From Syntrophobacteraceae bacterium (lineage in GTDB: Bacteria > Desulfobacterota > Syntrophobacteria > Syntrophobacterales > Syntrophobacteraceae): a stretch of 64,000 nucleotides of DNA. Below are positions 5,777-25,648 of the stretch, piece by piece (position 1 is the stretch's first letter; every line of letters begins with the position of its first letter). The notes beneath the pieces are model-generated. The model did no database searches. It was not told where the DNA came from and saw nothing but the letters and a program-made list of their open reading frames with translations. The position numbers were made by a program, and so were the translations under genes. The stretch covers positions 5,890 to 69,889 of the forward strand of contig JBAQYM010000202.1 of the NCBI GenBank assembly GCA_049300095.1, written 5' to 3'.

Positions 5777-5795
5777 AGGGGGGTGGATCAGACCC

Positions 5796-7959: not shown

Positions 7960-8049
7960 GACCCATCGATGCCCTTGGGACTATGTTGGGCCTGTTCGGC
8001 ATGAGCGGGAATCATGGCGCACGTCCCTGGCTGCCGGTGGAACATTAAG

Positions 8050-8371: not shown

Positions 8372-8507
8372 CTAAGTGAACAGTATTGGAGTCAGCCGGC
8401 CGGCAAGGAAGAGCGGCCGCTCTCTCGATACGGGGCACGGCGGGCTAATCGATGGTAGAATGGATCGCGAAGAGACGGAGGACCGAAATGCGAGATGGTA
8501 TTGAGAA

Positions 8508-9059
8508 ATGATGCAAATCCAAAGAAGCCTTGCAATTACTCTCAGTTGCATCGCGATTCTCTGGGCGGTGTATTTCGTGGGCCTTGTCTTGCCCGTTGAT
8601 ATTCGGATTTATGGCATCAGACCACGGAGAATCGACGGCTTGCCGGGTCTGATATTTTCACCTTTCCTCCACTTCGGCCTCAGGCACTTACTCTCCAACA
8701 CCTTGGCCCTGGCTCCCTTACTATTCTTTTCGTTGACGTACAGCATAAGACTCACCATGAAAGCCGTCATCATCATCGCCCTTATCGGGGGAGCCGGTGT
8801 CTGGCTTTTTGGACAGAGTCACACTGTGCACATCGGATCGAGCGGGATCGCCTTCGGTTTGATAGGCTATCTGCTCGCTATCGGTTTGTTTCGAAAAGAA
8901 CTGTTGGCCGTGCTTGTTTCCTGTGTGGTGGCTTTCTATTACGGCTGGGTATTGTATTCCCTGGTGGCTGTTCTGCCTGGTGTGAGTTGGACGGGGCATT
9001 TCTTCGGTTTTGCATCCGGCGTTCTGGCCGCATGGTCCATGAAACAAGAGAGGCAATAG
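8508..9059 (+). CDS. Rhomboid-family intramembrane serine protease
   Basis: Polytopic membrane protein with the catalytic GSSGIAFGL (GxSG) and a downstream GHFFGFASG histidine helix. Confidence 0.85.
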   Translation: MMQIQRSLAITLSCIAILWAVYFVGLVLPVDIRIYGIRPRRIDGLPGLIFSPFLHFGLRHLLSNTLALAPLLFFSLTYSIRLTMKAVIIIALIGGAGVWLFGQSHTVHIGSSGIAFGLIGYLLAIGLFRKELLAVLVSCVVAFYYGWVLYSLVAVLPGVSWTGHFFGFASGVLAAWSMKQERQ

Positions 9060-9242
9060 GAGCGGTCTGTTTTTCGCCCGCGCGGTCTTCTTGATAATGG
9101 GACGGCTCGGGTGGGACACGGCTTCGTGAATCGAAACCACATTGCTCCCCGCAGGTGAATCTGTGGCTTCCTGGAGCGGGAAGTGGGTGAAAACGGCGGC
9201 TATATCTGTTCACCATGGTGCTGATCTTATCCGGGAGCACTC

Positions 9243-9800
9243 TCATTTTACGATGGGAAGGACCTTGCGGAATTCTTCCGTATTGGCGCGCCTGGCCCAT
9301 TGGAAGATAACGATCTCCGCCGAGGTGATCACGGCCCCGGCCTCCCTGAGAAGGTCTATGGCGATATCGCGGTTTTGACTGGTCCGTGAAGCCACGCCAT
9401 CCGCCACAAGCTGGAGGCGGTAACCTTTCGCGATGAGGTCCAGGCCCGTTTGCAGAACACAGACATGGGTCTCCATTCCAACGACCACGATCTGGCTGCG
9501 ATGGTATGATTCGATCAATGGCGGGAAGTCCGTCTCAAGGCAGGCGCTGAAATGCTCCTTGTGAAACACCTTCGGAGACCTGATCCGGTCAAGGACTTCT
9601 TGAATGGTTCCCCCGAGTCCTTTGTTGTATTGTTCTGTCAGGAGAATCGGGATACCGAGGGCGTCCGCGGCTTGAGTAAGCTGATTCACCTTTCGGGCCA
9701 CGTTCCGCCACGTGTCGATTACCTTGAGCATCGCCCGCTGGATGTCGATAATCAGCAACAGGCAGTCTTCACGGGCGGCAACGAATTCATGCCGGTTCAT
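9243..9800 (-). CDS. Isochorismatase-family (cysteine) hydrolase
   Basis: LLIIDIQRAML near the N-terminus and VVVGMETHVCVLQTGLDL, the catalytic Cys block. Confidence 0.85.
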   Translation of the reverse strand: MNRHEFVAAREDCLLLIIDIQRAMLKVIDTWRNVARKVNQLTQAADALGIPILLTEQYNKGLGGTIQEVLDRIRSPKVFHKEHFSACLETDFPPLIESYHRSQIVVVGMETHVCVLQTGLDLIAKGYRLQLVADGVASRTSQNRDIAIDLLREAGAVITSAEIVIFQWARRANTEEFRKVLPIVK

Positions 9801-10132
9801 GGGTCCCTCGTTTCTGAGAAAATGATTGGAAAGGGCGGTCCGGTGCTGAGGGCGCGCACCTTCGATTGAGCGTCTCGCACCTCTTCAATGCCTCAACCGG
9901 ATGTCCGGTATTCCCCGGATTCAGCGCCCGACTCACGATCTATTTCGGCTTTGGAACTGCTCACCGCTTGTCGCCGACAATCTGCTGGAGTAATATGCCG
10001 CTCTCATCACTTTATGGATTCTACCAAAGCTAAACGCTCCGCGCACTTTCGTTTTTGAGGAATGGCATCATCCGATACAGACTTGCATGATTGACCGTCC
10101 GTGATTCAAGCCCCGCATACTGGAGAGAAGGG

Positions 10133-10636
10133 ATGAAGCGGAACAAGCCTCCGACTCCTCAAGCACCCGTGACGCCCGGTGAGCCGGCGCCGCCGGAAGC
10201 TCCGGCACGGCCGGCCAAGCCGAAGAAGTACCGCAAGACCACGCTAATCGTCCTCGGAGTGGCAATGACCGGGCTTATCATCTGGTCGCTCTCGGATGAC
10301 GAGCCGCCTCCGGAGGAGCGACGGTGCGTCGACCCGAAGACCGGCAAAGTGGTTCAGGAGTACTACTGCGAGGATGATGAAACAAAGAGACGCTATGCCC
10401 CGACCTACGGCGGCTGGGGCGGCGGCATGCATTTCTGGTATTACGGGGGGGCCGGGTACAATGTGGGAGATTCGGCGAACGGAGGGTCCAGGACGCCTCC
10501 AAGAGGCTATGTGGCGAGGGGTGTTTCCTACACGGGGTCCGGTTCTTCCCGCGCGTCGAGTTCCAGTCGATCGTCATCGAGCGTCCGGGGTGGTTTCGGC
10601 AGTTCGGCATCGGCGCACGGCGCCGGTGGCAGTTGA
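10133..10636 (+). CDS. YgiB/YjfM-like (DUF1190-type) membrane-anchored protein
   Basis: Basic, Pro-rich N-terminus, one TM helix (TTLIVLGVAMTGLIIW), Ser-rich tail ending RGGFGSSASAHGAGGS like E. coli YgiB. Lies immediately upstream of a YgiC-type ligase. Start at the ATG at 10133 after GGAGAGAAGG. Confidence 0.5.
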   Translation: MKRNKPPTPQAPVTPGEPAPPEAPARPAKPKKYRKTTLIVLGVAMTGLIIWSLSDDEPPPEERRCVDPKTGKVVQEYYCEDDETKRRYAPTYGGWGGGMHFWYYGGAGYNVGDSANGGSRTPPRGYVARGVSYTGSGSSRASSSSRSSSSVRGGFGSSASAHGAGGS

Positions 10637-10655
10637 TGGGGGAAAGGGCCCGAGT

Positions 10656-11798
10656 ATGAAACGAGTTCCTATCAAGCCGCGGCGGAATTGGCGGGAAAAA
10701 GTGGAAGAAACCGGCCTGCTCTTCCACCATACGGCGGAAGGCCCGTATTGGAACGAAAACTCGTATTATGACTTCAGCGCGGCGCAAATCGATGAACTGG
10801 ACGATGCGGCAAACGAGCTTCACCGTCTGTGCCTGAAAGCTGTTCAACATGTAATTGACTACAACCGTTTCCAGGAGCTTTCCGTACCTCCTTTGGCGGT
10901 CCCCGCCATAAAGGCGTCCTGGGAGGAAAAGCAGCCGACTATTTGCGGCCGATTCGACTTCGCCTATGACGGGGTAAACCCGCCCAGGATGCTCGAATAC
11001 AACGCGGATACTCCCACGTCTCTCCTGGAAGCCGGTGTGACCCAGTGGTTCTGGCTGCAAGAGCGGTTCCCGGAGGCCGATCAGTTCAACTCCATCCATG
11101 AAAAGTTGGAGGAATGCTGGCGGAATTCAGATCATCTTAGGAAAAGCGGCGGCGGAAAAATCCACTTTGCATGCGTTTCCGAGCATGTGGAGGACCTTGT
11201 CACGGTGACCTACCTGCGTGATACGGCCGGAAACCAGGGGTTCGAAACCGACCTGGTCTACATGGAAGACATCGGCTGGGACCCCTCGGGGCGCCGGTTC
11301 ACCGACCTCCAGGACCTAACCATACGCAATATCTTCAAGCTCTACCCCTGGGAATGGATCGTTGCCGAGCAGTTCGGCCCGCATGTGCTGGAGACCTACC
11401 AGGAAATGAACTGGATCGAGCCGATCTGGAAAATGATACTGTCCAACAAGGGTATTCTCCCGATTTTGTGGCAGCTTAATCCGGGACACCCCAATCTGCT
11501 CGAGGCCTATTTCGACGAACCGAAAGGCATGACCGATTATGTCCGGAAGCCGAAACTCTCCCGCGAGGGCTCCAACATCTCCATTTTCCGGAATGGCGGT
11601 GAGCTTCACACCGCGGGGACTTACGGCGAGGAAGGATACATCTGCCAGTCCATTGCCCCGATACCCTGTCTGGCCGGAAGCTACCCAGTCCTGGGGTGCT
11701 GGATCATAGGGGGTAAATCGGCCGGGATGGGGATACGGGAGACTTCGGGGCCCATTACATTCAAGCATGATCGCTTTGTGCCGCATCTTTTCGGGTGA
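10656..11798 (+). CDS. Glutathionylspermidine-synthase-family ATP-grasp ligase (YgiC/YjfC-like)
   Basis: GRFDFAYDGVNPPRMLEYNADTPTSLLEAGVTQWFW is the characteristic pre-ATP-grasp block. The ORF-track start at 10296 overlaps the upstream gene, so the start was reset to MKRVPIKPRRNW at 10656. Confidence 0.8.
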   Translation: MKRVPIKPRRNWREKVEETGLLFHHTAEGPYWNENSYYDFSAAQIDELDDAANELHRLCLKAVQHVIDYNRFQELSVPPLAVPAIKASWEEKQPTICGRFDFAYDGVNPPRMLEYNADTPTSLLEAGVTQWFWLQERFPEADQFNSIHEKLEECWRNSDHLRKSGGGKIHFACVSEHVEDLVTVTYLRDTAGNQGFETDLVYMEDIGWDPSGRRFTDLQDLTIRNIFKLYPWEWIVAEQFGPHVLETYQEMNWIEPIWKMILSNKGILPILWQLNPGHPNLLEAYFDEPKGMTDYVRKPKLSREGSNISIFRNGGELHTAGTYGEEGYICQSIAPIPCLAGSYPVLGCWIIGGKSAGMGIRETSGPITFKHDRFVPHLFG

Positions 11799-11825
11799 TC
11801 TTTTCCGAAAAACAGGGAGAAGAAC

Positions 11826-12668
11826 ATGGAAGATGTAATCAAAATTGCCGCTCCTTTTTTCATATTCCCGCTCGTCGCCCTGGGATTCATGTGGGCATTG
11901 AAACTTCTCGATGGCCGGCGCACCTCGTTCAACGAAGACGATCAGATGATTTCCGGTAAGAACCTGGCGGTCAGCCTCCGAAAATCCGGGATGTATCTCG
12001 GACTCGCCTTCGGGCTTGCCGGAACTTTTTTCGGCCCCTCCCATGGGCTTGCCACCGACCTGACGAACTTTATGATAGCCGGCATAGTGCTCCTGGTTCT
12101 TCTCTTTGTGGCCTTTGTGATCAATGACAAGGTCATCCTCTGCAGGGTGGACGGCGACAAGTCGATAAGCGAAGGAAATACGGCGGTTGGCTTGGTGGAA
12201 TTTGCCAGTTATCTATCAAGCGGCATCATCATGCACGGGGCGTTCTCCGGTGAGGGAGGAGGTCTCCCGGCGGCAGCGGTTTTTTTCCTTCTGGGCCAGG
12301 CAGGGCTTGTGATTGCATTTTACCTGCTGGAGGCGCTTACTCCCCGCAATATATGCGAAGAGATCGAGTTGAGGCAAAATGCCGCGGCCGGGATGGATGT
12401 TGCCGGTATGCTCATCGCCCTTTCAATCATTCTTCGGTCAAGCCTGGCCGGGCCGTTCACCGGATGGGTCCCCGGTCTCAAGGGCTTCGGCCTCTACCTG
12501 GTCGCCGGACTCATTGCCCTGGCGGTCTTTCGCTTTCTTGGCAACAGGATATTCGTGCCCGGGTCTTCCTATGACCAGCAAATTTCCGTTGCCCGCAACC
12601 TTCCGGCAGCCACTCTTTCCTCGGTTGTGCAGGTCGGCCTGGCCCTGGTGATTGCCGGTACGTTCTAG
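11826..12668 (+). CDS. Multi-pass membrane protein, DUF350/YjfL-like
   Basis: 280 aa of repeated hydrophobic helices. The position after a YgiC/YjfC-type ligase mirrors the E. coli yjf cluster. The family call is by context and composition only. Confidence 0.55.
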   Translation: MEDVIKIAAPFFIFPLVALGFMWALKLLDGRRTSFNEDDQMISGKNLAVSLRKSGMYLGLAFGLAGTFFGPSHGLATDLTNFMIAGIVLLVLLFVAFVINDKVILCRVDGDKSISEGNTAVGLVEFASYLSSGIIMHGAFSGEGGGLPAAAVFFLLGQAGLVIAFYLLEALTPRNICEEIELRQNAAAGMDVAGMLIALSIILRSSLAGPFTGWVPGLKGFGLYLVAGLIALAVFRFLGNRIFVPGSSYDQQISVARNLPAATLSSVVQVGLALVIAGTF

Positions 12669-13028
12669 CAGGATAATGCCTCGAGGCTTTCTTCCACCAT
12701 TGTCCTGGTCGGACGTAAAGGGTGGTCCTCGGGAATCAGGCTCTCCGGGCAGAACGAATAAGATATCCCCGGTTGCCGGCGAACAGGCTTTCTCATTGAT
12801 TGCCTTGTCGGATTTACTCGTATATTCAGTGACTTGATACTACATCAAACCCGCCAAAGATACACGTGTATTGATGATTACTTCAGCAACCTGCTGACCC
12901 CGCAATTCAGCTCACGCGAAAGATCCCTGCAATCATGCGGACTTGTACGAAATCAGGCGGTAAGTTATAAGGGAAGCATACGCTTTGACCAACGAAGAAG
13001 TTTGACGGGGCCCGGGACGCAAGCGGTC

Positions 13029-13976
13029 ATGAATTCGAGAAGCCGATTCAAGTTTGCCCGTAGTTATTTCACCTGCCTGGTTCTCGCCTGCCTGCTGTTT
13101 CCGACGGCTTGCAGCCGTGACGAGGACACCAGGGTTATTGATTTTTCCAAAACCGTTCAGGTGTCTCGCCCGGATGGGGCCAGCCGTGATCGTCCCACGC
13201 TCCGGGTTGCCGTGGGAGCCATGATTTCTCCCAAGGAGACCTTCATCTACTATCGCCAGGTCCTGGACTATATCGCGGCTGGATTGGGCTGGAATGTGGA
13301 ACTTGTCCAGCGAAAGACTTACTCCGAAGTAAACGAACTTATTGGGAAGGGCCAGATCGACCTCGCATTTATCTGCTCCGGACCATATATCCGCGGCAGG
13401 GAGAAATACGGGTTCGAGCTTCTGGCGACTCCGGAAGTGAAGGGAAGCCACTTCTATCAATCGTATCTGATCGTAAACAGCGCGAGTCCCTACCAAAGCC
13501 TCTCCGACCTGAGAAAACGGGTCTTCGCCTTCACAGACCCCGATTCTCATTCGGGAAAGCTGGTGCCGACCTTTTGGTTGTCCGAAATGCACGAACAACC
13601 CGACAGCTTCTTCGGGAAGACCATTTACACTTACAGCCATGACAATTCGATCATGGCGGTCTCGCGGGCCCTGGTGGACGGCGCCGCTGTCGATAGCCTG
13701 ATTTGGGAATACTACAATCGGAAGGACCCATCCATGACCGCCGGAACACGGATAATCAAAAAATCCGATTTGTTCGGCATACCCCCGGTGGTCGCATCGA
13801 AGTCTTTCCCACCGGAAATGAAAAGCCGGGTGCGTGAGATACTCCTCGCCATGCACAAGGACCCCGAGGGAAGCAAGATTTTGCGGGAGTTGATGATAGA
13901 TCGATTTGTCGCTCCTCGGGAGGAGTGGTACGATGCCATTCCGCGGATGGAACGGAAAATCCAGGCAGGAAAGTAG
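13029..13976 (+). CDS. PhnD-family (phosphonate/phosphite/oxyanion-type) periplasmic binding protein, lipoprotein
   Basis: Lipobox LLFPTAC. LRVAVGAMISPKETFIYYRQVLDYIAAGLGWNVELVQRKTYSEVNELIGKGQIDLAFICSGPY matches the PhnD-type fold signature. Stop lies 3 nt before the sigma-54 activator gene. Confidence 0.75.
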   Translation: MNSRSRFKFARSYFTCLVLACLLFPTACSRDEDTRVIDFSKTVQVSRPDGASRDRPTLRVAVGAMISPKETFIYYRQVLDYIAAGLGWNVELVQRKTYSEVNELIGKGQIDLAFICSGPYIRGREKYGFELLATPEVKGSHFYQSYLIVNSASPYQSLSDLRKRVFAFTDPDSHSGKLVPTFWLSEMHEQPDSFFGKTIYTYSHDNSIMAVSRALVDGAAVDSLIWEYYNRKDPSMTAGTRIIKKSDLFGIPPVVASKSFPPEMKSRVREILLAMHKDPEGSKILRELMIDRFVAPREEWYDAIPRMERKIQAGK

Positions 13977-13979: not shown

Positions 13980-16187
13980 ATGAGACTGCAAAGTTTGAAG
14001 GGCAAATTGCTCGTGGGAGTTTCAGCTCTTGTCATTTGCAGTGGACTTTTGATCTCTTTGCTTGTCACCCAACGATACAGCCGCGGCCTCTCAGAGGCAA
14101 TGTCCGCCCAAGCCGAGTATTTGACTCATGCCGTGGCTCTTCAGGCTGCCGACCTGGTCCTGATAAACGATCAGGTTGCTCTTCAGAAACTGCTGGACCA
14201 CCTGCTGAGCAGCACCCCATCCCTTGCCTACCTGTTCATAGTTAAGGACGGACAGGTGCTGGCGCATACTTTCAGCGGCGGTATGCCCGTGGATTTGCTC
14301 ACCGCAAATGAAGCCCCGCCTTCGGATGGACCTCATGCCCGGAAGGTCGCATCCTCAAGCGGCGATTATTTCCTGGACATGGCAATGGCGATTTTTGAGG
14401 GGAAGGCGGGAACACTTCGCCTGGGTTTTTCCGAGAAGCCCCACCGTGAGCAGATCACCAGACTATGGCTGCAAATGAGCCTGTTTACGCTGGGAATCCT
14501 CTTGCTGGCGCTTGTCGCCAGCCTGTTTTTCATCAGGAGGATAACCGGGCCTCTGTCAGACCTCGCCCGGGCCGCGGATAAGGTCGATAAAGGGGAACTG
14601 GACTTTAAAGTCGGCGTCCACGGGCAGGATGAGGTTGCCAATCTGGCGGCCTCGTTCAGCAACATGGTTTCCCGACTGCACAACTATACTAGCCGGCTGG
14701 AAAATAAATCCATCGAGCTCGAGCGCGCCCACCAGCAGACGCGCACCTTTTGCGGGGTCGTGCAAGAGGTGGGATCTCTTCAGAATCTCGGTGAAATCGG
14801 AACTTTTCTCATTCGGCAATGCCGGGCCATCCTCGGGGATGCGCAAATGGTCTTTATGATCGGGGACACTGCCGGGAACTCCCTGTATCTCCTGCGGGAA
14901 TCCATCGCCGTTGACATTAGAGACCCTGCAAATATCCAGCGTTTTTCCAAAATGATCGAAAGCTTTGGCGGTAAGCCCGAGCCTGTGTGCGGGAAGGACC
15001 TCGGGATTATTCAACTCGTCGATCGGGATTTAGCGGGATACGCCCACCAATGCCTGATTCCCTTCTTTCATGAACGCCGCGTGCTCGGCGTCCTGGCCAT
15101 CGGCGGTAATTCGCCGCTGAGGTGCGGGACCGATGAACTCGACGTCGTCGGTTCGATGCTCGGCCATGCCGCCGGGGTAATTAATCGGGCCATTTTCCAC
15201 GAGCAGGAAATACGCGCGCTTCAAAATCGGATTGAGAGCTCATGCGAATTTTGCGACATAGTGTCCAAGGACCCCAGGATGCAAGTGATCTTCAGGTTGA
15301 TCGAAGATATCGCTCCCACGGATGCCACCGTTCTCATTCAAGGCGAAAGCGGCACCGGAAAGGAACTTGTGGCCAGGGCGATTCATCTTAAAAGCCCGAG
15401 AAAAGAAAAACCTTTCGTTGTGATAGATTGCTCCGCCTACCCGGCCACTATCCTGGAATCCGAACTTTTCGGCCATGAAAAAGGTGCTTTCACGGGCGCA
15501 ATTCGGCAAAAGCCGGGACGATTCGAGCAGGCGCATGGTGGAACGGTCTTTCTCGATGAGATCGGGGACATTCCGCTCACGGCTCAAATCAAGCTCCTCA
15601 GGGTGCTGCAGACGCAAAAATTCGAGCGCATTGGAGGAGAGAAGACCGTCACGGTGGAAGTGCGGATTATCGCCGCCACAAATAAGAACCTGCTCGATGA
15701 AGTTAAACACGGACGCTTTCGCGAAGATCTCTACTATCGGTTAAGTGTCATTCCTATCGACCTGCCGCCCCTTTCAAAGCGAAAAAATGATATTCCTTTG
15801 CTTGCGCATCATTTCATGAACCGATTCGCCGCTGCCCATGGCAAAGCCGTCGATTCATTCAGCCCGGATGCGATGCGGTTTCTGCTCGATTACCAGTGGC
15901 CCGGAAACGTCAGGGAACTCGAAAACACCATCGAGCATGCGGTAGTGCTGTCCAGAGGATCGCGGATTGAGGCGGCGAACTTACCTGAAGCATTTCGGAC
16001 GGCCGCGTCGAATAGCCCGGTGGACAGGTCTTCCACAATCGAGGAAAATGAGAGAAAGCTTCTCGTGGAGACTATGGCGGAGTGCGGTTGGAACAAGAAG
16101 AAGGCTGCCGGTCGATTGGGTATAAGTCGAAGCACTTTGTACGAGAAGCTGAAAAGACACGGGATCGCCCCTCCGATGACACACTGA
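13980..16187 (+). CDS. Membrane-anchored sigma-54-dependent transcriptional activator (TM-periplasmic-TM-HAMP-GAF-AAA+-HTH)
   Basis: Two predicted TM helices ([20 protein letters not shown]; [18 protein letters not shown]), followed by a HAMP-like segment and a GAF-like region. Also [23 protein letters not shown] (GAFTGA) and a C-terminal Fis-type [24 protein letters not shown]. No receiver domain. Confidence 0.9.
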
Positions 16188-16380
16188 TGTACACCTCCCC
16201 GGCCCCACAATGCTTGAGACCTTCCGACAGTGACCGGAAATCGTACACTGCATAACTCGTTGTAATGTCACCCAAACCCGTGATCCACATCTTTATCTGT
16301 CCTCCATCCGTACACTCCAGCCCCCCCGCCTGCCTGCCTGAATCCAAGTCCCGCGGCTTCAGCTAATGCTTTGGGGACGA

Positions 16381-16396
16381 TGGCATGGTAATTGCC
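16381..16396 (+). promoter_or_regulatory. Sigma-54 (-24/-12) promoter
   Basis: TGGCATGGTAATTGCC versus consensus TGGCAC-N5-TTGCW, with GG and GC correctly spaced. Lies 40 nt upstream of the ATG at 16436. Confidence 0.75.
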
Positions 16397-16435
16397 CTAT
16401 GAATGCAGGTAGTTAAGCCGTCTGGAGAAAGAAAA

Positions 16436-16780
16436 ATGCCTAAGCGCATAGCCGTTGTGAACGGGGACAATGAGGAGCGCGCTCAACTGTGCGCGGCCCT
16501 TCGCATGCGGGGTTTCCACGCGGATGGTTTTTCATCGCTTGTGGAGTTTGAGCGGGATGGAAGGGATTTCGCGGTGGTCATATTCGACCTTGCAAGCGTG
16601 CTTGTAACCAACCAGTTGCTGAAGGACTACAGCAAGGCCATGCCGGGCCTTCGTATGATTGCCATATCCGGTCGCACTCTTCACCCTGAACTCAGGGAAT
16701 CCATGGCCACATGTCTTACCGCCTGTCTCACGAAACCCGTCGATCTGAACGAACTGGTTTATTTGTTGAACGGAATATGA
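16436..16780 (+). CDS. Single-domain receiver (CheY-like) protein
   Basis: KRIAVVNGDNEE ... VVIFDL ... IAISG ... CLTKPV matches the receiver Asp, Ser/Thr and Lys positions. The ATG at 16403 was rejected because it lies at or before the predicted sigma-54 transcription start. Confidence 0.65.
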   Translation: MPKRIAVVNGDNEERAQLCAALRMRGFHADGFSSLVEFERDGRDFAVVIFDLASVLVTNQLLKDYSKAMPGLRMIAISGRTLHPELRESMATCLTACLTKPVDLNELVYLLNGI

Positions 16781-16860
16781 GTGAAAAAGTCGCTGTTCAG
16801 TAGGAGCAAAGTTTAAGTGTCTTGGACTCGGAATTCGACACCGGGAAAGGATGGTCGCTC

Positions 16861-17613
16861 ATGAGCATAGATTTACCTTTGGAAGATCACCTGATCAGGA
16901 TGCAGCGGGACCTAAAGAGGGCACAGACCAAGAATCCCGCCGACATAAAATGGACGATGGTGATTGATCTGGCCAAGTGCATCGGATGCCATGCGTGCAC
17001 ATTGGGCTGCGTGGCTGAAAACAAATTACCACCCGGAGTGGTCTATCGCCCCGTGATCGAGGAGGAAATCGGAAAATATCCCGACGTGAGGCGGCGCTTC
17101 TTGCCGAGGCCCTGCATGCAATGTCAGAACCCCCCGTGCACCAAAGTCTGTCCCGTCTCGGCAACTCACAGGAATGAGCAGGGCGTGGTCGTCGTCGACT
17201 ACAACCGTTGCATAGGATGCCGATACTGTCTGGTAGCCTGTCCCTACTCTGCCCGCACATCGGATTTTGGGGAATACTATACCGGGAAGACACCTGACGT
17301 TACCGGGAAAATCCTTGGCCGAAAGATGGCGGCCGAGTGCTACGAGGCGCATCCGGCAGCGGAATACGGCAAGAAGTGGCCTGAGCGGGGCAACGGGTCT
17401 CCAATAGGGAACGCCCGCAAGTGCCATTTCTGCCTGCATAGGCTGGCAGTGGGTATGTTGCCGGCCTGTGTCACGACCTGTGTGGGACGCTCAACTTTGT
17501 TTGGAGACCGAAACGATCCGGAAAGCCTGGTCTACGCTTTGCTCGGCTCACCTCGCATCTATCGCTTGAAGGAAGAATTGGGCACCAAACCCGCTGTTTA
17601 CTATCTCAGTTAA
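16861..17613 (+). CDS. 4Fe-4S ferredoxin-type electron-transfer subunit of a molybdopterin oxidoreductase (TtrB/PsrB-like)
   Basis: Four Cys clusters: CIGCHACTLGC, CMQCQNPPCTKVCP, CIGCRYCLVACP, CHFCLHRL...ACVTTC. Confidence 0.9.
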   Translation: MSIDLPLEDHLIRMQRDLKRAQTKNPADIKWTMVIDLAKCIGCHACTLGCVAENKLPPGVVYRPVIEEEIGKYPDVRRRFLPRPCMQCQNPPCTKVCPVSATHRNEQGVVVVDYNRCIGCRYCLVACPYSARTSDFGEYYTGKTPDVTGKILGRKMAAECYEAHPAAEYGKKWPERGNGSPIGNARKCHFCLHRLAVGMLPACVTTCVGRSTLFGDRNDPESLVYALLGSPRIYRLKEELGTKPAVYYLS

Positions 17614-17628
17614 AGGAAGGATGAAGCC

Positions 17629-18864
17629 ATGACCAAAAGGTCGTTCAACACTCTGCTTGCCGTGGCCATCCTCGGCCTAATTGTCGGCGCCTGGGGAATG
17701 GTCGAGAGGCTGATGCACGGGCTCAACCCGGTGGCTTTCGGCTCCTATGTTCCCTGGGGTCTATGGGTGGCCTTCTACCTGTTTTTCCTGGGGCTTTCAG
17801 CCGGGGCATTTTTGATCGCCACGCTGACATATGTATTCAGGATTAAACGTTTTGACAAAATAGGACGACTCTCGGCTTTTACGGTCCTGATAGCACTCCT
17901 TTGCGAAGTGCTCTTCATAATCATGGACCTCGGCCGGATGTCCCGGATTTACAGGTTTTTCATAACCCCCAGCTTCACTTCGCTGATGACGTGGATGTTC
18001 GTGCTGTTCAACGCCATGCTCGTCATCTACGCTCTCAAGACCTTCTTCCTCATTAGAGAGGACCTCGTACTCTGGGCAAATGACAAGAACAGGAACGGCA
18101 ATGGCTTCTACCGCTTCCTCGCCCTTGGAAGAACGAGCTATGGAGAATCGGACCACCTGCGGGATGAGAACCGGGTGCATATTCTCTCCATGATCAGTCT
18201 TCCCGTCGGACTCCTGTTTTACGGCACGAACGGCGCCTTCTTCGCAATTCTGATGAATCGCCCCATCTGGAACAGCGCCCTCACACCGCTCCTTTTCATA
18301 ATGGCCGCAATCCTTTCCGGCGGCGCCCTCATCACCTTTCTCACCCATATGTTCATGCGAGATGACGAACTGGTCACTTCTCTCGGGCGCACGATTCTTT
18401 TTGTGCTCATCGTCTACCTATTCCTCGAAGCGTTGCAGTTTTTCGTCGGATATCAGACCGGGGTCACCAACGTTGTGGCAACCCTCGACCTGATCATCTC
18501 GGGACCTTACTGGTGGACCTTTTGGCTTGTTCATCTCCTGATCGGAAGCCTCGTCCCCCTGTTTCTTTTCATCGGACGCCCAAATGATTCAAAGACTGTT
18601 GCCTGGGCGTGCTTTCTCATTGTGATCACCTTTATTGCCGTACGGATGAATTTCGTGGTTCCCGACCTGGCCGTCTACAAGTTGGAGGGCCTGGAGAACA
18701 CCTTCTACCATGCTCGGTTACGGACCCAGTACACGCCCAATTTGAACGAATGGCTGGTGAGCCTCTGGATCGTGTCGCTTGGACTTGTCGCCTTCCTTCT
18801 GGGGGCGCGGTGGCTGCCGGTGATCTCTTCTCGGAGAGGAGGAATGGAACATGCCAGGTATTAG
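17629..18864 (+). CDS. NrfD/PsrC/TtrC-family integral membrane quinol-interacting subunit
   Basis: 411-aa polytopic membrane protein located between the FeS and catalytic subunits. Confidence 0.85.
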   Translation: MTKRSFNTLLAVAILGLIVGAWGMVERLMHGLNPVAFGSYVPWGLWVAFYLFFLGLSAGAFLIATLTYVFRIKRFDKIGRLSAFTVLIALLCEVLFIIMDLGRMSRIYRFFITPSFTSLMTWMFVLFNAMLVIYALKTFFLIREDLVLWANDKNRNGNGFYRFLALGRTSYGESDHLRDENRVHILSMISLPVGLLFYGTNGAFFAILMNRPIWNSALTPLLFIMAAILSGGALITFLTHMFMRDDELVTSLGRTILFVLIVYLFLEALQFFVGYQTGVTNVVATLDLIISGPYWWTFWLVHLLIGSLVPLFLFIGRPNDSKTVAWACFLIVITFIAVRMNFVVPDLAVYKLEGLENTFYHARLRTQYTPNLNEWLVSLWIVSLGLVAFLLGARWLPVISSRRGGMEHARY

Positions 18865-21800
18865 CTCGGAAAAAAAGGAGAAATACCCTTTGAAGATGGA
18901 AATGAAACGACGCGAGTTCCTAAAGTGTTCGGCGCTCTTCGGAGGGTCCCTTGCCGCTGTGACCACTCTGGGGCGCTCTGTTGATGGTGATGGGAGCGAC
19001 TCCGCATGGGCAGGTGCAAACGCGGTCGGCATGTCAGAGAACGCCTATTTGCATCACCTTCCCGAGAACCAGCTCATGTCCGTCTGCCAGCAGTGCAACA
19101 CCAACTGCGGCATGAAGGTGAAGATGGAGAATGGCATGGTTGCCAAGATCGACGGCAATCCATACAGCCCGTGGACTCTCACGCCCAATATCGCCTACAA
19201 CACGCCGCTTTCGGAGGCCGCGGTGATAGAAGGGGCGCTCTGCCCGAAAGGGCAGGCGGGAATCCAGGCGCTCTATGACCCTTACCGAATCGTTAAAGTC
19301 CTCAAGCGGGCCGGTAAACGCGGTGATAACAAATGGAAGACCATCGGTTTCGAACAGGCCATAAAGGAGATTGTCGAAGGAGGCGATCTTTTCGGCGAAG
19401 GCAAGGTCGACGGTCTCAAGGACATCTGCACTCTCAAAGACCCCAAGGTCGCTTCGGCCCTCGCGGAAGACGCCGCGCAGGTTGCGGCGAAAAAGATGAC
19501 CCTGGCGGCTTTCAAAGAGAAGCATGCCGACAATCTCAAGTATCTCATCGATCCGGACCACCCCGATCTGGGCCCGAAGAACAACCAGTTCTGCCTCAAC
19601 TGGGGCCGCCTGAAGGGAGGGCGCGCCGAGATGCTGAAGCGTTTGGTGAACAACGCTCTCGGGTCGGTGAATACCCACGGGCATACGACTGTTTGCCAAG
19701 GCTCTCTTTATTTTACCTGCAAGGCGATGAGCGACCAGTATGTGGAAGGGAAATTCTCCGGTGGCAGCAAGTTTTACTGGCAGGCCGATCTCGGCAATGC
19801 CGAGTTCGTGCTCTTCGTTGGGGCGAACCCCTACGAGGCAAACTACGGCCCGCCCTGGCGAGCCCAGAAAATCACCGAAGGTCTGGTCGGCGGAAGACTC
19901 AAAATCGCGGTCGTTGACCCGCGCTGCTCGAAGACCGCATCGCGCGCGTGGAAGTGGCTCCCCGTGAACCCGAACGGCGTGGGGGCGCTCGCCATGGCGA
20001 TAATCCACTGGATCATCGAAAACAAGCGATATGACGCCAAATACCTTGCCAACGCAAACAAGGCCGCCGCAACGGCCAAGGGTGAACCCACATGGACTCA
20101 AGCCGCATGGCTGGTGAAAGTCGGCTCGGATGGGACACCCCTCACCTTCCTGCGCGGTTCCGAAATCGGTCTTCCGACGGAAAAGCGCACGAACAAGGCC
20201 GGCGCGGAATGGACTTTCGATCCTTTCCTGGTGCGAAGAGGCGATCAGTTCGTTCCTTTTGATCCCAATGACGAAAAGACGCCGGTTGAAGGCGATTTGC
20301 TGGTCGATGCCGACGCAAACGGGACCAGGGTAAAAAGCGTTCTCCAGATCTACCGCGAAACGGCAGGCGAGAAAAAGCTTCCCGAATGGGCTGAAATAAC
20401 TGGACTTAAAGAATCGGACATCGTTGAAGTCGCGCGGGAACTCACCAGTCATGGAAGGAAAGCCGTCGTCGACGTGCATCGTGGGGTCTCCCAGCATACC
20501 TCGGGATTCTACAATGTGCTTGCATGGATGCTTGTAAATGTGCTCATCGGCAACCACGATTATGCGGGTGGCCTCGCAAAAGCGACTACATTCAACATAG
20601 TTGGGGACAAGGAGGGAAAACCCTTCGATACGAGCAAGCAGGGCGGCAAGTTGAAGAGCTTCGGCATCTCGATTATCAGACACGAGGCCTCTTATGATAA
20701 GTCGACGATCTTTGAAGGATATCCTTCCAAAAGAGTGTGGTATCCCTTCTGCAGCGACATCTACCAGGAGGTGATTCCCAGCATGGGAGACGCCTATCCG
20801 TACCCCATCAAGGCCCTGCTCCTCTACATGGGAACGCCGATCTACTCCCTGCCCGCGGGTCATAAGCTGATCGAAATCCTCTCCGATCCCAAGAAAATCC
20901 CGCTGGTGATCGTTTCTGATATCGTTGTCGGTGAAACCAGCATGTACGCTGATTATATTTTCCCCGACCTCACTTACCTGGAAAGATGGGAATTCTCCGG
21001 CTCCCATCCATCCGTTACGCCGAAGGTAGGCCCGATCCGCCAGCCGGTCGCGGCGCCGCTAACGGATACGGTGACGGTATTCGGGGAAAAGATGCCGCTC
21101 TCGCTGGAATCTCTTCTGCTCGGACTCGCCCAGGAAATGAAGCTTCCCGGATTTGGCGAAAACGCCTTCGGTCCGGGTCTTCATCTGAAGCGGGAAGAGG
21201 ACATGTACCTGCGGATGGTTGCAAATATCGCGTTCGGCGACAAGCCCGACGGGTCCGAAAAAGTTCCCGCCGCAAGTCAGGAGGAGATAAGGATATTCGA
21301 ACAGGCGAGGAGGCATCTTCCCTCCACCGTCTTCGATGCCAACCGGTGGAAGGCTGTTGTCGGCGAAACGCTCTGGCCTCACGTGGTCTATGTGTTGAAT
21401 CGTGGCGGCCGGTTCCAGGGCTATGAGCAGGCATATAAAGACAATCAGCTTGCAAATAAATACGGCAAAATGATCGGGATATATTTCGACCGGTTGGTCA
21501 CCGCCAAACACTCTATGACCGGGATGCCCTATGTGGGTCACGCCCATTACATCGAAGGGCCGCGCGATTGCTCCGGGAACCTGTTGGACGATAAGACGCG
21601 GGGGTATGACATGACCCTCATCACTTACAAGACGATCACCCAGACCAAGAGCCGGACTTATGGCAACTATTGGCTTCAGGCACTCGAACCTCAGAACTAC
21701 ATCGAGATCGCCGTGAGCGATGCCAGGCGCCTTGGACTCGTGGAGGGCGACCGGGCAAAACTTGTTTCCGCCAGCAATCCCGACGGAGTATGGGACTTTG

Positions 21801-22081
21801 GGAACGGGAAGAAAAAACCGATGATCGCCCGGGTTCGCATCCTGGAGGGTATCAGGCCGGGAGTGGTCGCATTTTCGCTCGGCTTTGGGCATTGGGCCTA
21901 TGGGTCCTCGGACCTGGCGATCGACGGTGTGGCTATACCGGGAGACTCTCGCAGGGCTACCGGCATGCACGGAAACGCGGCCATGCGGGTCGATCCGGTT
22001 CTGAAAAATACCGGGCTCGTGGATACGGTTGGCGGCAGCGCTGTTTTTTATCAGAGCCAGGTAAAGGTCGTTAAGGTTTGA
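18851..22081 (+). CDS. Molybdopterin (bis-MGD) oxidoreductase catalytic subunit, TAT-exported, TtrA/SrdA-size class
   Basis: Twin-arginine signal MEMKRREFLKCSALFGG. N-terminal FeS motif CQQCNTNCGMKV...CPKG. 1076 aa. The B-C-A gene order matches ttrBCA/srdBCA. The start may instead be the in-frame ATG at 18896. Confidence 0.9.
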   Translation: MPGISSEKKEKYPLKMEMKRREFLKCSALFGGSLAAVTTLGRSVDGDGSDSAWAGANAVGMSENAYLHHLPENQLMSVCQQCNTNCGMKVKMENGMVAKIDGNPYSPWTLTPNIAYNTPLSEAAVIEGALCPKGQAGIQALYDPYRIVKVLKRAGKRGDNKWKTIGFEQAIKEIVEGGDLFGEGKVDGLKDICTLKDPKVASALAEDAAQVAAKKMTLAAFKEKHADNLKYLIDPDHPDLGPKNNQFCLNWGRLKGGRAEMLKRLVNNALGSVNTHGHTTVCQGSLYFTCKAMSDQYVEGKFSGGSKFYWQADLGNAEFVLFVGANPYEANYGPPWRAQKITEGLVGGRLKIAVVDPRCSKTASRAWKWLPVNPNGVGALAMAIIHWIIENKRYDAKYLANANKAAATAKGEPTWTQAAWLVKVGSDGTPLTFLRGSEIGLPTEKRTNKAGAEWTFDPFLVRRGDQFVPFDPNDEKTPVEGDLLVDADANGTRVKSVLQIYRETAGEKKLPEWAEITGLKESDIVEVARELTSHGRKAVVDVHRGVSQHTSGFYNVLAWMLVNVLIGNHDYAGGLAKATTFNIVGDKEGKPFDTSKQGGKLKSFGISIIRHEASYDKSTIFEGYPSKRVWYPFCSDIYQEVIPSMGDAYPYPIKALLLYMGTPIYSLPAGHKLIEILSDPKKIPLVIVSDIVVGETSMYADYIFPDLTYLERWEFSGSHPSVTPKVGPIRQPVAAPLTDTVTVFGEKMPLSLESLLLGLAQEMKLPGFGENAFGPGLHLKREEDMYLRMVANIAFGDKPDGSEKVPAASQEEIRIFEQARRHLPSTVFDANRWKAVVGETLWPHVVYVLNRGGRFQGYEQAYKDNQLANKYGKMIGIYFDRLVTAKHSMTGMPYVGHAHYIEGPRDCSGNLLDDKTRGYDMTLITYKTITQTKSRTYGNYWLQALEPQNYIEIAVSDARRLGLVEGDRAKLVSASNPDGVWDFGNGKKKPMIARVRILEGIRPGVVAFSLGFGHWAYGSSDLAIDGVAIPGDSRRATGMHGNAAMRVDPVLKNTGLVDTVGGSAVFYQSQVKVVKV

Positions 22082-22119
22082 GCCTGAATGAAGTTTCGCT
22101 AAAGCAAGGAGAAGCCTCG

Positions 22120-22722
22120 ATGCCGGATCAGGTCAGGGTGTGCGGAAGGTCCATGGAGGAATTTCTGGACATGATCGAGAAATTCCACGGGTGGAGAGCT
22201 CCCGGGCTCGTTATCGGCGGATTCATGGTCGATTGGGCACAGGAACTGATAGGCCCGGGCATCGAGGCCGACGCCTTCGTTGAGACTTGCCATTGCTTGC
22301 CGGATGCCGTCCAGCTTTTTACTCCCTGCACATACGGCAACGGTTGGATGAAGGTCCTGGACTGGGACAAGTTCGCGCTCAGCCTCTACGACAAGAAGAC
22401 GCTGGACGGGTTCAGGGTCTGGTTTGACCTGGAGAAGGCCCGCTCGTATCCCAATATCCACAACTGGTACATGCGTCTTGTACCAAAAAAATCCTTGCCC
22501 CTGGAAGTGTTGCTCGATGACATCATCGCGGCCGGAAGGTCGATGCTCTCCAGCTCACCAGTGCGAGTCACCCAACTGCATGGCAAGAAAAAAAAGGGAG
22601 AAATAGCCGTCTGCTCCGGTTGCGGTGAAGCTTACCCCACCCGGCAAGGTGGGAGGTGCCTTGCGTGTCGGGGGAAGGGGTATTATGACATTGGTCAATA
22701 TCTCCCCAACGTGAGGTCTTGA
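22120..22722 (+). CDS. FmdE-family protein with C-terminal zinc ribbon
   Basis: FHGWRAPGLVIGGFMVDWA resembles the FmdE FHGHxCPGxxxG block with the H and C positions substituted. C-terminal CSGCGE...CLACRG. AAGGAGAAG precedes the ATG at 22120. Confidence 0.65.
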   Translation: MPDQVRVCGRSMEEFLDMIEKFHGWRAPGLVIGGFMVDWAQELIGPGIEADAFVETCHCLPDAVQLFTPCTYGNGWMKVLDWDKFALSLYDKKTLDGFRVWFDLEKARSYPNIHNWYMRLVPKKSLPLEVLLDDIIAAGRSMLSSSPVRVTQLHGKKKKGEIAVCSGCGEAYPTRQGGRCLACRGKGYYDIGQYLPNVRS

Positions 22723-22723
22723 G

Positions 22724-23758
22724 ATGGGCCAGGCAAAGGTAAAAGTCGAAGACGCCATCGGAATGGTTCTCGCCCACGATATAACCGAGATTCGACGCGG
22801 CGAATTCAAGGGCGCGGCCTTCAGGAAGGGCCATAAAATACGGGAAGCCGATATCTGCCATTTGCAGAGGCTTGGGAAAAATCATCTCTACGTCCTGAGA
22901 ATCGAAGAGGGCTATCTTCACGAAAACGATGCCGCCATCGCGCTTGCCGATGCACTCAGCGGAGACGGGGTCACCTGGAAAGACGAACCGAGGGAAGGAA
23001 AAATCTCGCTTCTGGCGGCTGCGGACGGCCTCTTCAAGGTGGACGCGGATGCACTGACCGGGATTAACATGCTGGAAGAGGTGATGTGCGCAACCCGGCA
23101 CACCAATTTCCCGGTAAAGCGGGGCGATGTGGTGGCGGCGGTCCGTGCAATTCCGCTCGTGATCCGCTCTGAGATAATTGACGAGGCAGTCAGGATATCA
23201 GAGGCTCATGGCGCGGTCCTCAGTGTGAAACCGATTAGGAAGGCTCGGGCGGGCATAGTCATCACCGGCAACGAGGTTTATTCCCGATTGATCGAGGACC
23301 AGTTCGAACCGATACTGCGCGGGAAGATGGCTCGAATAGGCTCGGATGTCATGGGTGTTGTGTTCACGCCTGATGATCCCGAGCATATAGAGCGGGAAAT
23401 CAGGAATCTGCTCACCAATGGGGCGGACCTCCTCCTTGTCACCGGAGGCATGTCGGTCGACCCGGACGATGTCACACGGCAAGCAATTGCCCGGGCCGGG
23501 GCGAAGGAATTTCTGTATGGGGCCCCGGTGCTGCCGGGTGCAATGTTTATGACTTCATTTATTGGAGATGTCCCGGTCCTCGGCATTCCCGCTTGCGGGC
23601 TCTATCATGAAGCAACCATCTTCGATCTGATTCTGCCCAGGGTCCTTGCAGGTGAGCGTCTCACCCGCAAGGACATCGCGGAACTCGGTCATGGCGGTTT
23701 GTGCCTGCACTGTGCCGAGTGCCGGTATCCCGTCTGCCCGTTTGGAAAGGGACACTAA
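22724..23758 (+). CDS. MoeA-related molybdopterin-binding (MoCF-biosynthesis domain) protein
   Basis: VITGNEVY...LLLVTGGMSVDPDDVT (TGGxS..D motif). C-terminal Cys cluster CLHCAECRYPVCPFG. Confidence 0.75.
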   Translation: MGQAKVKVEDAIGMVLAHDITEIRRGEFKGAAFRKGHKIREADICHLQRLGKNHLYVLRIEEGYLHENDAAIALADALSGDGVTWKDEPREGKISLLAAADGLFKVDADALTGINMLEEVMCATRHTNFPVKRGDVVAAVRAIPLVIRSEIIDEAVRISEAHGAVLSVKPIRKARAGIVITGNEVYSRLIEDQFEPILRGKMARIGSDVMGVVFTPDDPEHIEREIRNLLTNGADLLLVTGGMSVDPDDVTRQAIARAGAKEFLYGAPVLPGAMFMTSFIGDVPVLGIPACGLYHEATIFDLILPRVLAGERLTRKDIAELGHGGLCLHCAECRYPVCPFGKGH

Positions 23759-23759: not shown

Positions 23760-24076
23760 AACTTGTCCGTAAATAACTGGTTAGCTGTGAGCACAGCCTT
23801 ACGGGCTGGCGCCAATCACAGAAGGACAAATCCCCATGAAACTGAAGTTCGGCTTGGGACGTCAAAATCGTCATTCCCGTAGTGTCTCTGGGCGGGAATC
23901 CAGTGTCTTGCTTTGCGCAACGTATCGAAAAGACACTGGATTCCCGCCCCGAGACACTCAAACAGGGAATGACGATCCGTCGATCCTCAGTTGTATGTGG
24001 ACTGCATGGAATTTGAGGTATGCCATTTGGGCAATAGCCCCTAAAAACCCCTACACAGATTATTTACGGACAAGTT
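23760..24076. mobile_element. MITE-like non-autonomous element, copy 2
   Basis: TIR AACTTGTCCGTAAATAA / TTATTTACGGACAAGTT, flanked on both sides by CTAAG (23755-23759 and 24077-24081). The left CTAAG contains the stop codon of the MoeA-like gene. Confidence 0.65.
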
Positions 24077-24120
24077 CTAAGGGACGTAGAAAATACTACT
24101 GTACCTTTTTGTTTCTCGCT

Positions 24121-24155
24121 GCCTCGTTCCCACGCAGGAGCATGGGAACGAGGGC
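24121..24155. repeat. Short GC-rich hairpin (CCTCGTTCCCA...TGGGAACGAGG)
   Basis: An 11-bp stem read directly from the sequence. Resembles REP-like hairpins common in proteobacterial intergenic regions. Confidence 0.4.
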
Positions 24156-24250
24156 TACTTCGGTAGAGGCACATAAAAATCTGCCCTAAAACGGGACAAT
24201 GATATTTTCTAGATCCCTTAATACGGCCCAGCCATTAGCCCAGATGACGA

Positions 24251-25489: not shown

Positions 25490-25601
25490 ACAAATACATT
25501 TCACTTCTCATCACATTACCTCACTTAATCCTTGACACGCCTACATTTAAGGCCTATTGTACCTTCACTTTCCATCAGTCCGAACCCCGCTGCTTCACCC
25601 C

Positions 25602-25626
25602 AAAAAGCGGGACAGGAGCGGGACAA
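25602..25626 (+). repeat. 25-nt repeat AAAAAGCGGGACAGGAGCGGGACAA (GCGGGACA units), integrase-proximal arm
   Basis: Identical 25-mer at 51733-51757. A third CGCGGGACA lies at 25629-25637. Confidence 0.7.
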
Positions 25627-25648
25627 ATCGCGGGACAGGGAGAAGGCC

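Follow-up and report, generated by a model that had tools for sequence, protein, structure and literature searches.

Molybdoenzyme complexes of the B-C-A type that resemble tetrathionate reductase (Ttr) have been reported to reduce arsenate in Pyrobaculum, Anaeromyxobacter PSR-1, Geobacter OR-1, Melioribacter and Limisphaera (PMC12949373, PMC11462812, PMC5492636, PMC13608581). According to the same sources, the Pyrobaculum Ttr-like enzyme was expressed in Pyrococcus, and in strain PSR-1 14-fold induction and activity were recorded together with no tetrathionate reduction. A 'seemingly novel lineage' is mentioned in the literature on these enzymes (PMC10100899). In Melioribacter roseus the ttr cluster is preceded by a binding protein, a kinase and a regulator ('ArrTSR') and by ars genes (PMC5492636, PMC12949373). 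The locus described here, a B-C-A operon with its own sensor and activator genes, lies in a 64,000 nt stretch of a Syntrophobacteraceae bacterium (GCA_049300095.1, contig JBAQYM010000202.1, positions 5,890-69,889 of the forward strand), referred to below in its full length as the window. It is best read as a variant of the known Ttr-like B-C-A arsenate reductases and not as a new kind of system. On balance, and with somewhat more confidence than doubt, the locus is taken to encode a quinol-dependent respiratory arsenate reductase. Three independent lines, namely the sensor, the active site and the neighbours of orthologous operons, point to arsenic.

Two genes precede the operon:

13029-13976, + strand: ArrX-like periplasmic oxyanion-binding lipoprotein, the putative sensor (Pfam Phosphonate-bd, 1.8e-62, PhnD-type)
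13980-16187, + strand: membrane-bound sigma-54 enhancer-binding protein of 735 aa, the putative activator (Sigma54_activat, 1.1e-71; AAA_lid_14; HTH_8; HAMP, 1.3e-11; weak GAF_2)

The open reading frame (ORF) of the sensor opens at 12834; the probable start is the Met codon at 13029, and the signal peptide ends in ...LFPTAC, as in a lipoprotein. Among solved structures the best match is ArrX (6x6b; 1.5e-58, 202 bits), followed by AioX (154 bits) and PtxB (57 bits); phosphite and phosphonate binders score at most 57 bits. Identity amounts to 43.8% with ArrX of Chrysiogenes arsenatis (2 gaps over 260 residues) and 36.8% with AioX, and some of the orthologous sensors are equally close to both. 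All seven pocket residues of AioX (Y88, C106, Y131, S161, S163, H192 and D210; residue list from PMC5908839) are kept in the window sensor. The pocket residues are kept in 19-20 of 20 orthologous sensors, with S163 replaced by Thr in 18 of them. Cys106 is the pocket residue specific for the AioX/ArxX/ArrX subfamily, and PhnD lacks it (PMC5908839). Judged from its sequence, the window protein is a member of this sensor subfamily, closest to ArrX. ArrX binds arsenate at 1 µM and phosphate at 150 µM; selenate, sulfate, tetrathionate and thiosulfate are not bound (PMC5908839). No BLAST similarity to the sensor domain of TtrS was detected (E = 0.6). A preliminary description of this DNA had likened the regulation to that of arsenic oxyanion systems, not to TtrRS, and the case for this is stronger than was claimed.

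The activator gene begins four bases after the sensor gene. Its product is composed of a first transmembrane segment (predicted at residues 11-29), a periplasmic domain of about 135 aa, a second transmembrane segment (167-185), HAMP, a GAF-like region, an AAA+ domain with the GAFTGA motif, and HTH_8. Sigma54_activat with GAFTGA, HTH_8 and a target promoter with -24 GG and -12 GC elements are traits of a bacterial enhancer-binding protein. Kinase and receiver domains (HisKA, HATPase, Response_reg) were not found in the protein with Pfam, and no kinase or response regulator gene adjoins the operon. When residues 1-266 were compared with plasmids by tblastn, matches were confined to HAMP segments, and homology of the periplasmic domain to AioS/ArrS-type kinases was not found. 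Sensor and activator are conserved together 5' of B-C-A in about 25 loci. As in ArrX-ArrS-ArrR, AioXSR and ArxXSR, a PhnD-like sensor of the periplasm, sharing all seven pocket residues, goes with a sigma-54-dependent target promoter (PMC5908839). Unlike those systems, the window system is without a histidine kinase and a receiver-AAA+ regulator, one two-pass protein linking a periplasmic domain and HAMP directly to AAA+/HTH, and the enzyme under control is of the Srd/Ttr-like type instead of Arr, Arx or Aio. Compared with ArrTSR of M. roseus, the locus has one membrane-bound activator and a small receiver-like protein in place of the kinase and the response regulator. The earlier suggestion that this mixed signature is a sign of a new substrate did not hold, since a ttr-like cluster with an ArrX/T-type sensor and ars genes is already known in M. 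roseus.

The second line of evidence is the catalytic subunit:

18851-22081, + strand: A subunit, catalytic subunit of 1076 aa with bis-molybdopterin guanine dinucleotide (bis-MGD), exported by twin-arginine translocation (TAT) (Molybdop_Fe4S4, Molybdopterin and Molydop_binding domains)

As had been described, A has a TAT leader (MKRREFLK) and the motif CQQCNTNCGMKV...CPKG; its N-terminal [4Fe-4S] motif is C79-x2-C82-x3-C86-x44-C131. Inspection of the Mo-ligand position gave Cys282 (in HTTVCQGSLYF), which aligns with the Mo ligand Cys193 of ArrA. In the family profile alignment Gly252-Arg253 aligns with Gly164-Arg165 of ArrA. Arg165 is an arsenate-binding residue, and the Gly-Arg pair occurs in Arr, Arx and Ttr-like arsenate reductases, not in true Ttr (PMC12949373). 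This pair is invariant among the family members (282/282); in the alignment it is absent from TtrA of E. coli and Salmonella, which has T-S at this position, and from Ttr of Azospirillum.

The best curated NCBIfam model for A is TtrA (NF011567), with 500.8 bits against a cutoff of 1750. The models for PhsA, DmsA and ArrA score far below this (ArrA, NF041714: 118 bits, cutoff 1600). Matches to solved structures are led by PsrA (7e-34) and ArrA (7e-26). Identity is 49.9% to SrdA (first 400 aa), 30.7% to Salmonella TtrA, 31-33% to the Pyrobaculum arsenaticum and Aeropyrum sequences, and 24-26% to ArrA. Trees were constructed by neighbour-joining (100 bootstraps). The references for SrdA, Salmonella TtrA, Arr, Arx, Pyrobaculum, Aeropyrum and Psr/Phs comprised only the first ~400 residues (supplement of PMC7327174). 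Plasmid references were E. coli ttrRS-ttrBCA, PhsABC, Azospirillum Ttr, a haloarchaeal B-C-A accompanied by TorD, and the B-C-A of Citrobacter arsenatis, which adjoins an ars operon, and 150 representatives from an exhaustive homologue search were added.

The window A falls into a clade with 100% bootstrap support, together with close relatives and a second subclade of ~53% identity, to which Desulfomonile tiedjei and Micromonospora sp. Llam0 belong. The union of the whole clade with the SrdA group has 74% support, and A is sister to that group, not inside it (SrdA being represented by 400 residues). True Ttr (Salmonella, E. coli plasmid, Azospirillum) is remote from it, and the sequences from P. 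arsenaticum and Aeropyrum group elsewhere, in a clade with the signature HTSACQLGFY. The window clade comprises at least 280 protein clusters from more than ten phyla, and HTTVC(282)QGSLYF is found in 281/282 of its sequences. The Mo-ligand region reads GHTTVCQGSLYF in the window and EKTTLCGQTSNK in SrdA; it is HGAYCGLAYR in true Ttr and HTxICExSHH in most other clades, including the Citrobacter arsenatis enzyme. Bona fide Ttr is ruled out by the model score, the tree position, the Gly-Arg pair, a B subunit without a TAT leader and the missing TtrS/R, and A does not nest within TtrA. Canonical Arr/Arx is ruled out by score, identity and gene order.

With TtrBCA/TtrRS (Salmonella; E. coli plasmid copy) the locus shares the B-C-A order, the subunit types, an A subunit of ~1020-1080 aa, the TAT leader on A and the Cys ligand. 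Unlike TtrBCA, it has the Gly-Arg pair and a leaderless B, and an ArrX-like sensor with a sigma-54 activator replaces TtrS/TtrR. A TAT leader on B is a trait of bona fide Ttr (PMC2500031, PMC12949373). SrdBCA of Bacillus selenatarsenatis SF-1 (SrdA, BAJ83594) shares with the window system the B-C-A order, a large TAT-exported A with Cys-ligated bis-MGD, the N-terminal [4Fe-4S] motif and the Gly-Arg pair; the resemblance to ttrBCA and srdBCA noted earlier was borne out, SrdA being the closest characterised relative. ArrAB(C) of Shewanella ANA-3 (6CZ7) carries out the reaction proposed here, and its Cys ligand, the preceding His-(Ser/Thr) and the Gly-Arg pair align with those of A. It differs in gene order ((C)AB versus B-C-A), in its A subunit, which is shorter by ~220 residues, and in Lys198, which corresponds to Tyr287 of the window. 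The Ttr-like arsenate reductases (Pyrobaculum PAE1265-type, Anaeromyxobacter PSR-1, M. roseus MROS_1076 and Limisphaera) are likewise of the B-C-A type outside the Arr and true Ttr clades, with the Gly-Arg pair and an arsenic-responsive context; those of Pyrobaculum and Aeropyrum, with the identity given above, belong to another clade.

The third line of evidence comes from orthologous loci. Homologues of A at 68-87% identity form more than 100 clusters, mostly from metagenome-assembled genomes of Thermodesulfobacteriota. At 50-79% identity, 79 species-level genomes were found, with the B-C-A order in all of them wherever the flank is present. Their phyla are Thermodesulfobacteriota, Planctomycetota, Verrucomicrobiota, Chloroflexota, Gemmatimonadota, Bacteroidota, Nitrospirota, Myxococcota, Acidobacteriota and others. 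For each of the 79 orthologous operons, genes up to 10 kb away were surveyed by ORF clustering, followed by tblastn for ArsA, ArsD and the low-molecular-weight (LMW) phosphatase-type ArsC. Recurrent neighbour families are an ArsP-type permease, Acr3 (TIGR00832, 453 bits, cutoff 283), ArsR, a DsbD-like protein and thioredoxin. Strictly arsenic-specific genes (Acr3, ArsA, ArsD, LMW-phosphatase ArsC) are present in 17 of the 79 loci, and any ars-type gene (ArsR and ArsP added) in 30; in 8 loci the LMW-phosphatase ArsC adjoins the operon. The chance that a random 20-kb stretch contains an ars locus is put at about 1%, a figure which is an estimate and not a measured control.

Several of the arrangements appear to be operonic, namely arsR-B-C-A (L029), C-A-arsR-arsP-...-acr3 (L018) and sensor-activator-B-C-A-arsP-...-acr3 (L042). 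In Desulfovibrio sp. DV (L064) an arsR-acr3 cluster is divergent from B-C-A, and in Micromonospora sp. Llam0 arsR-arsP adjoins B-C-A. In the complete genome of the cultured type strain Desulfomonile tiedjei DSM 6799 the order is arsR-acr3-arsC-sensor-activator-receiver-like-B-C-A, all on one strand (CP003360.1, 6189815-6213039; locus coordinates 1791-13225). Identity between this locus and the window is 57% for the sensor, 57% for the activator, 46% for the receiver-like protein, 58% for B, 27% for C and 55% for A. Literature linking D. tiedjei to arsenate respiration was not found. The preliminary description had suggested a different or unassigned oxyanion. The clade is indeed biochemically unassigned; as to the oxyanion, the evidence converges on arsenate, a documented substrate of Ttr-like enzymes.

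Other B-C-A operons were encountered on plasmids. The conjugative IncFII plasmid of Citrobacter arsenatis LY-1 (NZ_CP037863.1; L082, 1523-11405) carries a different Ttr-like B-C-A operon with the Gly-Arg pair and HTNICELSHH, divergent from arsRDABC; near-identical copies of this operon occur on plasmids of Salmonella, C. freundii and Enterobacter ludwigii. It could be a mobile alternative arsenate reductase. The E. coli plasmid pC27A-4 (CP044309.1, L080) contains a complete ttrRS-ttrBCA cluster between a fumD gene and an IS5 element. Of the 62 Escherichia plasmid records hit, most have a ttrA match, and such matches occur as well on plasmids of Klebsiella, Shigella, Hafnia and Citrobacter.

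The operon is separated from the activator gene by a 245-bp gap, in which the following elements were located:

16381-16396, + strand: sigma-54 (-24/-12) promoter TGGCATGGTAATTGCC (sequence match and conservation in orthologous loci)
16242-16248, + strand: candidate upstream activator site, copy 1, CGTACAC (~140 bp 5' of the -24 element)
16309-16315, + strand: candidate upstream activator site, copy 2, CGTACAC (~73 bp 5' of the -24 element)

The promoter is the sole match to TGGCAYG-N4-TTGCW in the 64-kb window (at most 1 mismatch), where a mean of 1.08 matches is expected by chance. Since about one match per window is expected, it is the position and the conservation that carry the promoter's weight: an equivalent GG-N10-GC element (xGGCAYG-N4-TTGC) occupies the same position in about 23 of the 25 activator-bearing orthologous loci. 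A scan of the region for sigma-70 promoters and terminators gave matches no more numerous than in shuffled sequence. The heptamer CG[GT]ACAC occurs in 20 copies in 10 of 24 orthologous upstream regions (1.6 expected from shuffles), with copies concentrated 73-96 and 140-190 bp 5' of the promoter. Its recurrence at two preferred distances is a feature of a Syntrophobacteraceae-like subgroup, and an imperfect third copy, TGTACAC, lies at 16188-16194 in the window. The heptamers are candidate activator sites.

All six reading frames of the operon were confirmed, on the + strand, in the order receiver-like gene, B, C, A, FmdE-like gene and MoeA-related gene, with junctions of 41, 15, -14, -4 and 1 nt; the claim of one tightly packed operon behind a -24/-12 promoter was thus accurate. 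In addition to A the operon encodes:

16433-16780, + strand: small receiver-like protein of 115 aa, encoded first in the operon (FrzS receiver 2nt3 matched weakly, E = 0.0015)
16822-17613, + strand: B subunit, electron-transfer protein with four [4Fe-4S] clusters (Fer4_11, 3e-19, and related domains; four Cys groups)
17629-18864, + strand: C subunit, NrfD/PsrC-type haem-free quinol-oxidising membrane anchor (Pfam NrfD, 5.6e-37; ~10 transmembrane helices predicted from hydropathy)
22078-22722, + strand: FmdE-like protein with a C-terminal treble-clef zinc finger (Pfam FmdE, 8.1e-31; zf-Tbcl_FmdE, 3.4e-13)
22724-23758, + strand: MoeA-related molybdopterin-binding protein with a Cys-rich C-terminus (Pfam MoCF_biosynth, 6e-21)

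The first gene had been described as encoding a receiver-only protein, the weakest of the labels given. Its most likely start is the ATG at 16433, preceded by GGAGA, and not 16403, and neither Pfam nor NCBIfam gave a match. Besides the weak FrzS match, the receiver label draws on an alignment of 19 orthologues with CheY, in which the equivalents of Asp57, Ser/Thr87 and Lys109 are kept and the acidic (DD) pair is degenerate; the protein is conserved in 19 loci. The domain assignments of B, C and the FmdE-like protein stood. B probably starts at the ATG at 16861. Its best NCBIfam matches are DsrO, TtrB and ArrB, each under its cutoff. Its N-terminus is without the twin-arginine motif present in TtrB of E. 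coli (SKRQFLQ) and in B of Azospirillum (RSRRNF), and an in-frame TAG at 16801 bars extension of the ORF.

An FmdE-type gene follows A in 17 loci, and the FmdE-like protein is a probable enzyme-specific maturation factor. The label MoeA-like, as first applied, holds in part: the protein has a MoCF_biosynth domain alone (residues 177-276), which aligns weakly with domain III of MoeA. Its gene is conserved downstream in 14 loci, while full MoeA and MoaA genes take this place in other phyla; it is probably a cofactor-insertion factor. In six homologues (P0121, P0383, P0391, P0398, P0407 and P0418; 1447-1482 aa) C and A are predicted as a single polypeptide with PF03916 and molybdopterin domains. 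Either the fusions are genuine, or gene calling may have run through the C/A junction, where the two genes overlap.

The 117-aa ORF behind the operon (orf117, 23836-24189, + strand) is probably not a gene; it matches no family, none of the related loci has a counterpart, and it was taken as spurious. The next real gene, ~1.8 kb downstream, encodes a phage-type integrase (25532-26998, + strand). Beyond it lie RND efflux genes (AcrB-type, HlyD-type, OEP) and a type I restriction R subunit gene (33586-39612 and 41166-44366, both on the - strand). The window's only tRNA gene, tRNA-Arg, is found 25 kb further on (51816-51889, - strand). The integrase, RND and restriction genes bordering the reductase locus may be an integrated island. 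On the other side, just 5' of the sensor gene, a GSP_synth glutathionylspermidine synthase-like gene (9e-146) is followed by a gene for a two-repeat DUF350 membrane protein (10296-12668, + strand); neither is conserved beside the operon in other genomes.

The TAT leader of A and the NrfD anchor fit a periplasmic quinol:oxyanion reductase. A reductive direction is preferred because of the ArrX-like sensor, the anaerobic hosts (menaquinone being assumed) and the adjacency of ArsC and Acr3. In the proposed mechanism, periplasmic arsenate would be bound by the ArrX-like lipoprotein, and the loaded sensor would dock onto the periplasmic domain of the two-pass activator. HAMP and then the GAF-like region would relay the signal to the AAA+ domain, whose ring would remodel the sigma-54 holoenzyme complex and open it at the -24/-12 promoter, the activator probably acting from the CGTACAC sites 73 and 140 bp 5' of the promoter. 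The small receiver-like protein may modulate the activator, which is speculation. A would take up bis-MGD and a single [4Fe-4S] cluster on folding, probably with help from the FmdE-like and MoeA-related proteins, and would be exported by TAT, carrying along the leaderless B, to dock on C. C would oxidise menaquinol, and electrons would pass along B, with its four clusters, and then via the single cluster of A to the Mo ligated by Cys282. There arsenate, held by Arg253 among other residues, would be reduced to arsenite as the terminal respiratory step.

Several points weigh against arsenate as the substrate. The closest characterised homologue of A, SrdA, is a selenate reductase. The residues after the ligand are CQGSLYF, as against CAEAHKM in ArrA (with Lys198) and CExSHH in most other Ttr-like clades bearing the Gly-Arg pair, and from this difference it follows that the binding pocket is not the same. 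Among the reported Ttr-like enzymes, those of Anaeromyxobacter PSR-1 (WP_059435911.1), Geobacter OR-1 (WP_041969781.1), Melioribacter and Limisphaera were left out of the tree; the names Anaeromyxobacter and Limisphaera did not appear among the best 120 hits of two clade-II queries (one Myxococcales, one Verrucomicrobiota), and of such hits only about a quarter carry a name. No ars genes lie within the 64-kb window itself, and the ars enrichment in the orthologues was gauged against an approximate background rate taken from general knowledge. Genes of the ars type also accompany antimony handling and arsenite oxidases. The choice of ligand in the AioX/ArrX family is not set by the pocket residues alone (PMC5908839). 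By themselves these residues cannot separate arsenate from arsenite, and antimonate is absent from the ligands listed in PMC5908839. The assignment of arsenate to the clade is, as a whole, one made from sequence.

Of the other explanations, a respiratory selenate reductase like SrdBCA of Bacillus (Mesobacillus) selenatarsenatis, reducing periplasmic selenate to selenite with quinol as donor, is favoured by the high identity to SrdA over the 400 N-terminal residues as compared with Salmonella TtrA, by the 74% union in the tree, and by the gene order and Gly-Arg pair common to both systems. It is nevertheless considered unlikely. The window clade is separate with full support and differs from SrdA in the Mo-ligand region. 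The window system is further set apart by its ArrX-like sensor, whose namesake did not bind selenate (PMC5908839), with the sigma-54 activator, and by orthologue flanks that carry arsenite-efflux and arsenate-detoxification genes, not selenium genes. Limisphaera, with a Ttr/Srd-like complex that was not placed in the tree of the window clade, respires arsenate, not selenate (PMC13608581).

About as improbable is a reductase for another metalloid oxyanion handled by ars systems, most plausibly antimonate, or for a thio-arsenic species, sensed by the ArrX-like protein. Acr3 and ArsR serve antimonite too, as is established for ars systems, and the pocket after Cys282 is unlike that of all arsenate reductases compared. 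The latitude in ligand choice of the sensor family would permit such a substrate, and Desulfovibrio sp. DV originates from Pb-Zn mine tailings (PMC5300300). Against this, no positive evidence for antimony was found, ArrX as the nearest sensor binds arsenate at the micromolar concentration given above, and the arsenate-specific LMW-phosphatase-type ArsC is a neighbour of the operon in 8 loci as well as in D. tiedjei.

An enzyme of sulfur compounds, whether it reduces tetrathionate, thiosulfate or polysulfide or takes part in sulfur disproportionation, along the lines proposed for some Ttr-type complexes of Thermodesulfobacteriota, is less probable still. TtrA is the best NCBIfam model, homologues carry the Joint Genome Institute label 'tetrathionate reductase subunit A', and the Syntrophobacteraceae-like host lineage lives by sulfur metabolism. 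The Ttr-type complex of Desulfolithobacter is strongly induced in thiosulfate disproportionation (PMC9751629); that enzyme, however, is grouped with authentic Ttr (PMC12949373). The window A lies outside the true Ttr clade, with 501 bits against the TtrA cutoff of 1750, and has the Gly-Arg pair missing in true Ttr. Its partner B is without the TAT leader typical of Ttr (PMC2500031), TtrS/R are missing, and the sensor bears no relation to the sensor domain of TtrS.

An anaerobic arsenite oxidase working in the reverse direction, functionally Arx-like and passing electrons from arsenite to the quinone pool, is very improbable: Arr and Arx enzymes are cited in PMC7327174 as bidirectional in vitro, the arsenite sensors AioX and ArxX belong to the same sensor family, and some orthologous sensors are as near to AioX as to ArrX, but the window sensor is nearer to ArrX in an almost gapless alignment, the hosts are mostly strict anaerobes, in which electron transfer from arsenite to the quinone pool would be uphill on general bioenergetic grounds if menaquinone is used, and an arsenate-detoxifying ArsC adjoins the D. 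tiedjei operon.

With quinol-dependent arsenate reduction retained as the preferred function, three features appear to be new within the searchable literature: the clade marked by its invariant signature, the breadth of this clade, and the single membrane activator in place of kinase and response regulator. It is tentatively proposed, with doubt prevailing, that the HTTVCQGSLYF clade represents a third, so far unrecognised lineage of respiratory arsenate (or As/Sb oxyanion) reductases, distinct from Arr and from both described Ttr-like clades, and that its switch in Thermodesulfobacteriota is an ArrX-like sensor acting directly on a membrane sigma-54 activator with no phosphorelay.

Such a fused membrane activator would offer a compact substitute for the X-S-R three-component arsenic sensors, and the sensor-activator pair could serve as a minimal arsenate-responsive switch. 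Two cultured members of the clade, Desulfomonile tiedjei DSM 6799 and Desulfovibrio sp. DV, are available for direct testing. The usual marker for following arsenic release in sediments, aquifers and paddy soils is arrA. In one metatranscriptome study of three Japanese paddy soils, 'ttrA-like' transcripts were far above those of arrA (PMC11462812). If the sister clade of SrdA does reduce arsenate, arrA surveys would have missed a large group of arsenate respirers of wide taxonomic range, including Syntrophobacteraceae, Desulfomonile, Planctomycetota, Verrucomicrobiota and Chloroflexota.

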